Notes: generated by a model not told the origin, from the letters alone. Positions 58,385-58,888 are shown, counted from the first letter of the stretch. The stretch is DNA of 64,000 nucleotides from a virus (IMGVR_UViG_2698536687_000001); one strand, 5' to 3'. Made by a program: numbers and translations.

Positions 58385-58888
58385 TGGTGATGGTTGATGG
58401 AATTGAACCGCCGTAGCTATTTCTTTATATCCAATAAACCTGCGTGGACTTTTCTGTGGCAATTCGCACAGAGGACAATGCACTTCCTTACTTCTTCCTT
58501 AAGTCGCTTTCGAGATCGACTACATAGGTTAGAAGGATCGCCTTCTTTGCCGCCAGGGTTATCATGGTGGAGGTCCAGAACTATAGGTTCTTTTTCTCCA
58601 CAATTTTGGCACCCGATGAAGCGTTTATAACGAGATAAAAACTGACGGTTTGAACTTGTTTTTCTCGTTCTTGTTAACTTTATAAGCCGGCGCCTTGATT
58701 CATTGCTTGCATAACTCAGAGCATCTCTTTCCTTGGCGCACACCTTGCAAATATTTTGCAGGCCATCGCTCTTTCCTTTGTTTTTATGGAAATCGGAAGC
58801 AGGTTTTAGTGCTTTGCATTTGCTACAAATTTTCATCGGTATCCCACTGCTTACAAGGCAGACGCTCTAACCACTGAGCTACACCATC
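58385..58888 (-). tRNA. tRNA-Thr(UGU)-like gene split by a 433-bp insert (58413-58845) carrying an HNH endonuclease ORF
   Basis: 5' part 58888-58846: GATGGTG-TA-GCTC-AGTGGTTA-GAGC-G-TCTGC-CTTGTAA-GCAGT; 3' part 58412-58385: GGCGG-TTCAATT-CCATC-AACCATC-A-CCA; acceptor strands pair 6 of 7. Confidence 0.5.
58417..58836 (-). CDS. HNH endonuclease (homing-endonuclease-like) inside the tRNA-like gene
   Basis: 139 aa; N-terminal CxxC...CxxC zinc finger and C-terminal HHDN...CANCHRKVH HNH motif; AT-rich; ATG 9 nt after the anticodon stem. Confidence 0.75.
   Translation of the reverse strand: MKICSKCKALKPASDFHKNKGKSDGLQNICKVCAKERDALSYASNESRRRLIKLTRTRKTSSNRQFLSRYKRFIGCQNCGEKEPIVLDLHHDNPGGKEGDPSNLCSRSRKRLKEEVRKCIVLCANCHRKVHAGLLDIKK

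Follow-up and report, generated by a model that had tools for sequence, protein, structure and literature searches.

An HNH endonuclease gene within a tRNA-Thr(UGU)-like gene of a P1-like plasmid prophage and of lambdoid prophages

The split gene and the protein it encloses

We analysed a stretch of viral DNA of 64,000 nucleotides (nt), IMGVR_UViG_2698536687_000001 (the window), whose source region is a P1-like (Punavirus) plasmid prophage and in which a tRNA-Thr(UGU)-like gene is split by a gene for a predicted HNH endonuclease. This arrangement had been proposed in an earlier reading of the sequence alone (the sequence-only reading), and a direct check of the sequence bears it out with all of its coordinates except those of a second hairpin (see below): nine nt separate the 5' part of the tRNA from the ATG of a 139-amino-acid open reading frame (ORF), four nt follow the stop codon, the insert is 433 nt long, and the 3' part of the tRNA ends in an encoded CCA. 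The unit lies on the minus strand, tRNA position n corresponding to window coordinate 58889-n, and is composed of the following parts.

58888-58846, minus strand: 5' part of the tRNA (positions 1-43), with the anticodon TGT at 58855-58853
58888-58882, minus strand: 5' acceptor strand GATGGTG, followed by the D arm GCTC/GAGC
58863-58888, minus strand: tRNA positions 1-26 (5' acceptor strand and D arm), of the type found in the first slot of the P1 family (trnA-Asn / trnR-Arg)
58847-58862, minus strand: tRNA positions 27-42, the anticodon arm TCTGC-CTTGTAA-GCAG (followed by T at position 43), of the phage tRNA-Thr(UGU) type
58837-58846, minus strand: 5' junction and endonuclease leader (TGGGATACCG), the last nine nt before the ATG being GGGATACCG
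58417-58836, minus strand: predicted HNH homing endonuclease gene, 139 amino acids, intact, with its ATG at 58836 and TAG as stop codon
58413-58416, minus strand: CTAC spacer from stop codon to T stem (3' junction), identical in the six copies examined
58385-58412, minus strand: tRNA positions 49-76 (T arm, 3' acceptor strand, discriminator and CCA), of the lambdoid tRNA-Thr type
58412-58396, minus strand: T arm GGCGG-TTCAATT-CCATC, then AACCATC (58395-58389), A, and CCA (58387-58385)
58326-58384, minus strand: spacer after the CCA (TATACCAATGTGATGATTCTGCCGGT...), which came with the tRNA-Thr::HNH unit and has no P1 counterpart
58239-58325, minus strand: hairpin element of 87 nt, CACAACAG...CCGTTGTG, a likely right-hand recombination boundary

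Not all of the arms are as well formed as the sequence-only reading had it, and mismatches are present in the tRNA stems at T27/T43, C51/A63 and G7/A66. The likeness to a tRNA nevertheless exceeds chance. Taken alone, the 5' part scores 26.7 bits against the Rfam tRNA model (E=0.002-0.01), just below the gathering score of 29, and the 3' part together with the 26 nt downstream of it shares homology with tRNA-Thr genes that are intact in lambdoid phages. The sequence GGATAC(C/T)G-ATG is common to the window and to four lambdoid copies of the unit (L014, L015, L042 and L043, described below), and the GGGA 6 nt before the ATG is likely to be a ribosome-binding site. At the other junction, the last C of the CTAC spacer may be tRNA position 48.

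The ORF is matched by PHROG 2255, 'HNH endonuclease', at E=5.8e-39, and with the Pfam HNH family (PF01844) it scores 12 bits, below the cut-off of 21.4. Among 41 aligned homologues, residues C76, C79, H90, H91, C123, N125, C126, H127 and H131 are invariant; the catalytic His...Asn...His motif and the paired CxxC zinc ligands are present, and the motif aligns to the HNH domains of McrA and LtrA. A profile built from the same alignment identifies the En (HNH) domain of LtrA in the PDB at E=1e-3, and a Foldseek search of the PDB gave no significant match. We accept the product as a predicted nuclease of the HNH (beta-beta-alpha-Me) class, similar to endonuclease VII. The ORF is intact in six of six copies, and comparison of the window with the lambdoid copies gives ratios of nonsynonymous to synonymous substitution (dN/dS) of 0.09-0.17 at a dS of ~0.45, which indicates that it is under purifying selection.

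Occupied and empty alleles, and the question of splicing

Four lambdoid prophage contigs (L014, L015, L042, L043) carry an HNH gene whose product shares 86-89% amino acid identity with that of the window, and in each of them it likewise lies inside a tRNA-Thr(UGU) gene. The 3' junction, TAG-CTAC followed by the T stem, is the same in the window and in these four contigs, and in all occupied alleles tRNA homology resumes at the first base of the T stem. The 5' junction varies, homology to the tRNA ending at position 42 in the window and at position 37 or 38 in the lambdoid copies, so that, relative to an intact gene, positions 43-47 are missing in the former and positions 39-48/49 in the latter. 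The sequence-only reading had placed the insert at the variable-loop position, which is too simple a description.

At the lambdoid locus the empty allele is a single 76-nt tRNA-Thr gene, and pairs of closely related contigs differ by the presence or absence of the endonuclease gene within it. The occupied L043 and the empty L047 are 98.0% identical over 1349 nt upstream, as far as tRNA position 38, and 93.9% identical over 2.9 kb downstream, from tRNA position 50; between these flanks, 440 nt in L043 stand in place of the 11 nt GCAGGATGTCA in L047. Further occupied and empty pairs are L014 with L006 (Klebsiella phage 5 LV-2017) and L042 with L046. The unit is present in at least four flanking contexts in addition to the P1 context, its upstream neighbour being either a Q antiterminator gene or a methylase gene and its downstream neighbour one of three kinds of sequence. 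Because the unit is found in several different flanking contexts, we conclude that the tRNA halves travel with the gene, and this is what homing into a conserved target predicts. ARAGORN, at its default settings, calls no tRNA in any occupied allele.

By tblastn, more distant homologues (49-63% identity) are widespread among virulent phages, those like Felix O1 included. The homologues of Felix O1, ENT3 and DU_PP_I (57-63% amino acid identity) have a complete tRNA gene on either side, the distance from the stop codon to the next tRNA being 1-4 nt: the Felix O1 gene lies between tRNA-Gly and tRNA-Thr(UGU) and its stop codon is 1 nt before the Thr gene, and the ENT3 and DU_PP_I genes end 4 nt upstream of tRNA-Cys. 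Because of these positions between complete tRNA genes, the protein family is specialised for phage tRNA arrays, like SegB of phage T4 (PMC2330249). The same positions could be taken to mean that there was never an insertion into a tRNA gene, and that an intergenic endonuclease gene came to lie between two tRNAs, each of which later lost its proximal part; the origin of the first 26 nt of the window copy from another tRNA than the rest (see below) would also fit such a history. We regard it as highly improbable, as the lambdoid halves match one intact gene and have perfectly complementary acceptor strands (GCTGGTT / AACCAGC), and it is contradicted by the single 76-nt empty allele and by the L043/L047 and L014/L006 pairs.

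The sequence-only reading had offered an unusual intron, a split tRNA or an inactivating insertion as explanations, and had remarked that there is hardly any room for a ribozyme core. That remark holds, since 420 of the 433 nt of the insert (58845-58413) are coding and 13 are non-coding, and Rfam searches in E-value mode on a 2.5-kb slice, the 531-nt locus and the 561-nt L014 unit matched no group I or group II intron model. The Intron_gpI search was run at E<=10 with lax filters on the 531-nt and 561-nt slices, and the sole credible Rfam match on these two slices is the tRNA 5' half, at the 26.7 bits given above. For a group II intron there is again no Rfam match, and the 139-amino-acid HNH ORF is without a reverse transcriptase domain. 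Moreover, the presumptive exons are incomplete: those of the window are without positions 43-47, and those of the lambdoid alleles have neither the variable loop nor the 3' strand of the anticodon stem. Because there is no ribozyme match, because only 13 nt are non-coding and because tRNA nucleotides are missing, the insertion in the window is not an intron; together with the stem mismatches, these features favour an inactivating insertion among the explanations offered.

When introns are allowed, ARAGORN (-i) does call, for the window and its sister contig L012, a tRNA-Thr(tgt) whose 407-nt intron lies at position 39; for the lambdoid L014 and L015 the calls are inconsistent, being Gly and Trp. 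We dropped the 407-nt call as evidence because it borrows a GCAGG from the ORF and because of the Gly and Trp calls. An in-silico splicing scan, for which ARAGORN is too permissive to discriminate, found the joining of position 38 to GCAGG plus 26 nt as the only solution common to the four alleles tested. These two results, and the end of lambdoid homology at position 37/38, near the canonical tRNA intron site, are what can be said for a true intervening sequence that would be removed from the RNA, position 38 being joined to the GCAGG of the ORF 26 nt before the T stem to give a 97-nt tRNA-Thr with a long variable arm. We give this almost no credence. In addition to the lack of an intron model match and the 420 coding nt, the GCAGG belongs to the conserved coding sequence for KVHAG (His-Ala-Gly codons) and ENT3 has it too, outside any tRNA-Thr context; tRNA-Thr does not typically have a variable arm of 26 nt, and the arm shows no covariation among alleles. 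We know of no bacterial mechanism for protein-dependent tRNA splicing, and of no archaeal-type tRNA splicing endonuclease in an enterobacterial host. A spliced tRNA made by way of this GCAGG was not accepted.

A chimeric copy in the tRNA slot of a P1-like plasmid

Comparison with the tRNA region of phage P1 places the window copy at a locus where P1 holds two intact tRNA genes, trnA (Asn, GTT) and trnT (Thr, TGT) (NC_005856). In the window, this slot contains no intact tRNA gene, and in place of the pair are the imported tRNA-Thr::HNH unit and a lambdoid spacer. ARAGORN at default settings finds zero tRNA genes in the whole 64-kb window and three (trnA, trnT and trnI) in a 5.4-kb stretch of P1 around the slot. 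A megablast match to P1 extends from 59300 down to 58863 at 98.4-98.9% identity and ends 26 nt into trnA; over the same stretch the window matches P1, P7, RCS47 and others, at 98-99% identity for most of them and ~91% for D6 and SJ46. Upstream of the slot are the following features.

59562-62849, minus strand: dmt methyltransferase gene, upstream of the Pban/C1-operator region and then of the tRNA slot
59542-59571, minus strand: P1ban/P2ban promoter and bivalent C1 operator (ATTGCTCTAATAAATTTATTAGTGTAAT), with positions from the NC_005856 annotation

The Pban promoter and C1-operator region is 99% identical to that of P1 over 320 nt, and on the basis of this identity transcription into the tRNA slot is presumed to start at Pban.

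The window copy is chimeric. Its tRNA positions 1-26 are identical to P1 trnA at 25 of 26 sites (26 of 26 in the sister contig L012), and they are shared with the Arg(TCT) tRNA that other P1-like plasmids have in this slot; they prolong, without a break, the upstream match to P1 at 98% identity. The anticodon arm, the 3' half and the next ~60 nt are instead of the lambdoid tRNA-Thr type. The 21-mer GAGCGTCTGCCTTGTAAGCAG of the anticodon arm is present in many intact phage tRNA-Thr genes, and the arm aligns to P1 trnT and to the tRNA-Thr of Klebsiella phage 5. The 3' half differs from the latter at 3 of 28 sites (A57, A63 and T71), and two of these variants exist in intact lambdoid alleles, A57 in L046 and T71, opposite C2, in L047-L050. 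The sequence-only reading had named alignment of the two halves to different tRNA genes as a result that would refute it, and this is in part the case, positions 1-26 being of the P1 trnA type and the rest lambdoid tRNA-Thr.

The pairing of six of the seven acceptor positions had been noted in the sequence-only reading. It arises because the two acceptor stems are similar and the T71 variant pre-existed; no function is needed to explain it, and it is no evidence of selection on the helix. We considered whether T71, which pairs with A2 of the P1-type strand, might be a compensatory change (G71T), and ruled this out because the intact L047-L050 already have T71; nor is a patchwork of the 3' half with P1 trnA needed, since A57 and T71 are both found in intact lambdoid alleles. 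Among viral contigs we found no uninterrupted tRNA that combines a GATGGTG acceptor strand with a Thr anticodon arm, all such combinations in the 25 viral-contig matches carrying the HNH gene, and the 28-mer of the 3' half is restricted to P1-like occupied copies.

The spacer at 58326-58384 has homologues behind the tRNA-Thr of Klebsiella phage 5 LV-2017, L015 and L042, and a distant blastn search did not find it in other P1-like plasmids. Over positions 27-58, P1 trnT and the empty lambdoid allele L047 have the same sequence, and trnT is for this reason a plausible original target. The simplest history would be that the P1 slot received a tRNA-Thr::HNH unit from a lambdoid phage by recombination.

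We note that the 26 nt that follow the CCA (58359-58384, minus strand, TATACCAATGTGATGATTCTGCCGGT) are identical in the window and L042, two copies whose HNH ORFs differ at 11% of sites, and that in the lambdoid copies these 26 nt run into another T-arm-like hairpin, GCCGG-TGCGATT-CCGGC.

The hairpin element at 58239-58325 was encountered in the sequence-only reading as a second T-arm-like hairpin at 58283-58301; that hairpin actually lies at 58305-58287 and forms the tip of the 87-nt element. As a part of the interrupted tRNA it is ruled out, and it has no connection with the insertion, since the same element is present in HNH-free P1-like plasmids, a near-identical copy with few substitutions following tRNA-Thr in L004 and L005. 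Members of the family with other interiors are found in P1, RCS47, Klebsiella phage 5 and L042. The elements have fold z-scores of -3.5 to -6.1 and a closing stem with 5 covarying pairs, had no Rfam match, and may be processing sites or boundaries for recombination of tRNA cassettes. The family ranges from 68 to 102 nt and is framed by CACAACAG(R)TA.. and ..CCGTTGTG, with a bulged A and a variable multi-branched interior that sometimes holds a T-arm-like hairpin; its members flank tRNA genes in P1-like and lambdoid phages. Examples, besides that at 58239-58325, are at window 59085-59180 (minus strand), L001 3067-3153, L002 3282-3349, L006 1592-1659, L023 8962-9050 and L042 3484-3585.

The P1-family slot is itself variable. 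Its first tRNA has a constant upstream flank and acceptor stem (GATGGTG...CACCATC) and an anticodon arm that is Asn (GTT) in P1 and Arg (TCT) in other plasmids (L001 2912-2987 compared with L003 1263-1339 and L004 663-739), and the contents of the slot as a whole include Asn-Thr, Arg-Thr-Ser, Arg-Tyr-Thr-Ser and Asn-Thr-Ser. The varying anticodon arm and slot contents suggest a cassette-like exchange within tRNA bodies.

Proposed homing, distribution and neighbouring elements

We consider it probable that the unit represents a free-standing, intron-less HNH homing endonuclease gene that targets and inactivates phage tRNA-Thr(UGU), and that it passed from a lambdoid phage to a P1-like plasmid. 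The gene belongs to a phage family (Felix O1 gp47 / PHROG 2255 type) that normally resides in tRNA clusters, and in one lineage it lies inside a phage-borne tRNA-Thr(UGU) rather than beside it, where it takes the place of the 5-11 nt that lead from the anticodon loop to the T stem. It would be transcribed with the tRNA slot, from the C1-repressed Pban in the P1-like plasmid and downstream of the Q antiterminator gene in lambdoid prophages. The enzyme is predicted to cut intact tRNA-Thr genes of the phage type, carried by phages that reside in the same cell or co-infect it, and the break would be repaired from the occupied allele, with the retained tRNA halves (~38 nt and ~28 nt) and further flanking homology as arms; such repair would copy the gene in and at once destroy both the target site and the tRNA. 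For the window, a lambdoid donor would have recombined into the P1 slot, the left endpoint falling within the D arm of the tRNA that occupied the first place (trnA type) and the right one at or before the CACAACAG hairpin element, which is found after tRNAs in both phage families. This event would have deleted the rest of trnA and the resident trnT, leaving what is presumably a non-functional chimeric tRNA remnant around a functional endonuclease gene. Most likely, then, the tRNA::nuclease unit is a mobile parasite of a dispensable tRNA gene and not a new kind of intron.

Several observations weigh against this account. The putative target site is deduced solely from the insertion site, and the variation of the 5' junction by lineage (after position 37, 38 or 42) leaves a single clean insertion unproven. 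Copies of the window type are 100% identical in seven PLSDB plasmids and four RefSeq Escherichia coli plasmids, and do not inform on ongoing mobility among P1-like elements. The 5' and 3' acceptor strands can still pair, and ARAGORN -i does assemble a tRNA-Thr by way of the GCAGG in the ORF. Finally, the tRNA remnants have diverged less (3/28) than the synonymous sites of the ORF (~33%), which could reflect constraint on the RNA, or equally the renewal of the flanks from intact alleles at each homing event.

Constraint on the RNA would be expected if the tRNA halves served as a cis-acting device for the endonuclease mRNA, in which an acceptor/T-arm minihelix, with a topology like that of tmRNA, would allow RNase P and 3' processing enzymes to trim the transcript to a defined and stabilised mRNA, much as might occur in relatives whose genes are bracketed by whole tRNAs. 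Those relatives lie 1-4 nt upstream of one tRNA and shortly after another, so tRNA-punctuated processing is plausible for them, and all of the occupied alleles retain both acceptor strands, the D arm, the T arm and an encoded CCA. The lower divergence of the remnants than of synonymous sites is also in keeping with such a device, and in a fold of the 504-nt unit by itself most pairs of the acceptor helix have probabilities of 0.6-1.0. Closure of the acceptor in whole-unit folding depends, however, on the transcript ends that are chosen: once 40-nt flanks are added, none of the three lambdoid alleles forms the helix any longer, and the T arms of the window and L015 are predicted poorly. The T stems also have mismatches (C51/A63 in the window, A49/C65 in L015), the 5' strand of the window comes from a different tRNA and attains its six of seven pairs only through the pre-existing T71 allele, and homing alone predicts conservation of the flanks. 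We therefore think a cis-acting device unlikely. It is very unlikely that the tRNA pieces and the ORF constitute one functional RNA, whether a tmRNA-like chimera with ends that fold into an acceptor/T-arm module, to be processed and perhaps charged, or a tRNA-Thr precursor that loses the ORF by a ribozyme-independent route and takes the GCAGG of the ORF as the 3' strand of its anticodon stem; were either so, the endonuclease gene would live in an RNA gene without killing it.

Homing endonuclease genes usually spare their hosts by residing in introns, in inteins or between genes. Here, by contrast, one appears inside a structural RNA gene with no splicing element, an insertion that would be tolerated because a phage-borne tRNA is dispensable. 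Group I introns are found in tRNA genes of bacteria, examples being tRNA-Leu(UAA) and tRNA-fMet, the latter with I-SspI. Some of these introns code for homing endonucleases (PMC3984707). The window unit is like them in that an endonuclease ORF interrupts a tRNA gene after the anticodon region and ahead of the 3' half, and differs in having none of the self-splicing ribozyme, the anticodon-loop site and the complete exons that characterise such introns.

Among free-standing endonucleases, SegB of phage T4 is encoded in a tRNA cluster and acts at a site with a conserved T-stem-loop motif (PMC2330249). As with SegB and Felix O1 ORF47, a small endonuclease gene sits in a phage tRNA array and is polymorphic for presence and absence between related phages; the 3' junction in the window abuts the first base of the T stem, the motif contained in the SegB site, and Felix O1 ORF47 is a 57% identical homologue directly upstream of tRNA-Thr(UGU). 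The SegB and Felix O1 genes, however, lie between complete tRNAs, whereas the gene of the present unit lies within one from which 5-11 nt are lost, and SegB belongs to the GIY-YIG family, different from the HNH family to which the window protein is assigned by its sequence. Free-standing endonuclease genes are also known to split protein genes, as mobE does nrdA of phage Aeh1 and mobA does T4 gene 39/60 (PMC2988022). These too are intron-less genes within the body of a host gene and without a splicing element, but the split proteins reassemble and are functional, whereas the host in the window is an RNA gene with missing nucleotides and no sign of retained function. In searches of the literature we met with no account of a tRNA gene interrupted by an HNH gene in P1-like or lambdoid phages, and what is new here is the location of an endonuclease gene inside an RNA gene without a splicing element, together with its apparent transfer between phage families by way of a 76-nt target.

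The unit would be an example of a selfish gene that crossed between unrelated temperate phage families, from lambdoid to P1-like, where the only shared sequence is the ~76-nt tRNA gene and where the recipient's tRNA pair was erased. The 139-amino-acid protein is a candidate sequence-specific nuclease for a defined tRNA-gene target. Such events bear on how the variable tRNA arrays of phages are reshaped, and these arrays have now been linked to counter-defence (PMC11464382, PMC13096335).

The arrangement is rare, and its potential targets are abundant. Its exact 701-bp form is present in 7 of the 557 PLSDB plasmids that match the region (E. coli, E. fergusonii and Salmonella), and also in 3 viral contigs, one species-representative genome and one metagenome contig. 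Among 5426 complete E. coli genomes the unit is found in 4, and an intact phage-type tRNA-Thr, almost always plasmid-borne, in 597, the core chromosomal tRNA-Thr genes of E. coli not being matched at the stringency of this count. It also sets an annotation trap. In RefSeq records annotated with PGAP (NZ_CP046005, NZ_CP182160), a 99-nt 'tRNA-Thr' is placed at 58885-58787 on the minus strand and the endonuclease coding sequence is omitted; the label begins at tRNA position 4, reaches codon 17 of the ORF (50 nt into it), and probably arose as an artefact because the 5' half is strong.

How the element can decay is illustrated by L016 1-760 (GCA_907172385.1), a unit of the window type in which the tRNA 5' half and approximately the first 100 nt of the HNH ORF have been replaced, resulting in a 134-amino-acid fusion ORF (P0004). 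The unrelated upstream sequence may be an insertion sequence, judging by its appearance.

A second homing element is located 1-4 kb from the HNH gene. The dmt gene encodes 1095 amino acids, compared with a P1 gene of 2265 nt (~754 amino acids), and the surplus of ~342 amino acids is an intein (~61596-62621, minus strand) with a LAGLIDADG endonuclease domain (Pfam: Hint_2, LAGLIDADG_3, Intein_splicing). It is inserted just before the catalytic Cys of the PCQ motif of the C5-methylase, its borders and extein context reading GGTP/CFTAGH...VVHN/CQAFS. The dmt gene of RCS47 is of equal length and is annotated as a methyltransferase only.

Downstream of the slot, the window departs from the plp-upl-tciABC-trnI-ban order of P1 and contains ORFs of 156, 236, 110 and 202 amino acids, the last with a weak, sub-threshold match to Phage_base_V (23.1 bits, cut-off 23.8). 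Upstream of it, at 59261-59299 on the minus strand (within 59223-59391), there is a sub-threshold Rfam match to permuted tmRNA (24.1 bits, E=0.026, gathering score 47), and beta-tmRNA is also matched below threshold at the same stretch; ARAGORN calls no tmRNA there. The stretch is in a P1-conserved region directly downstream of the 'dicF-like region' and reads GCA AAC GAT GAT CTG ATG ATG GTA GCG GCC TAA, that is ANDDLMMVAA-stop, a peptide that resembles an ssrA tag (ANDENYALAA in E. coli).

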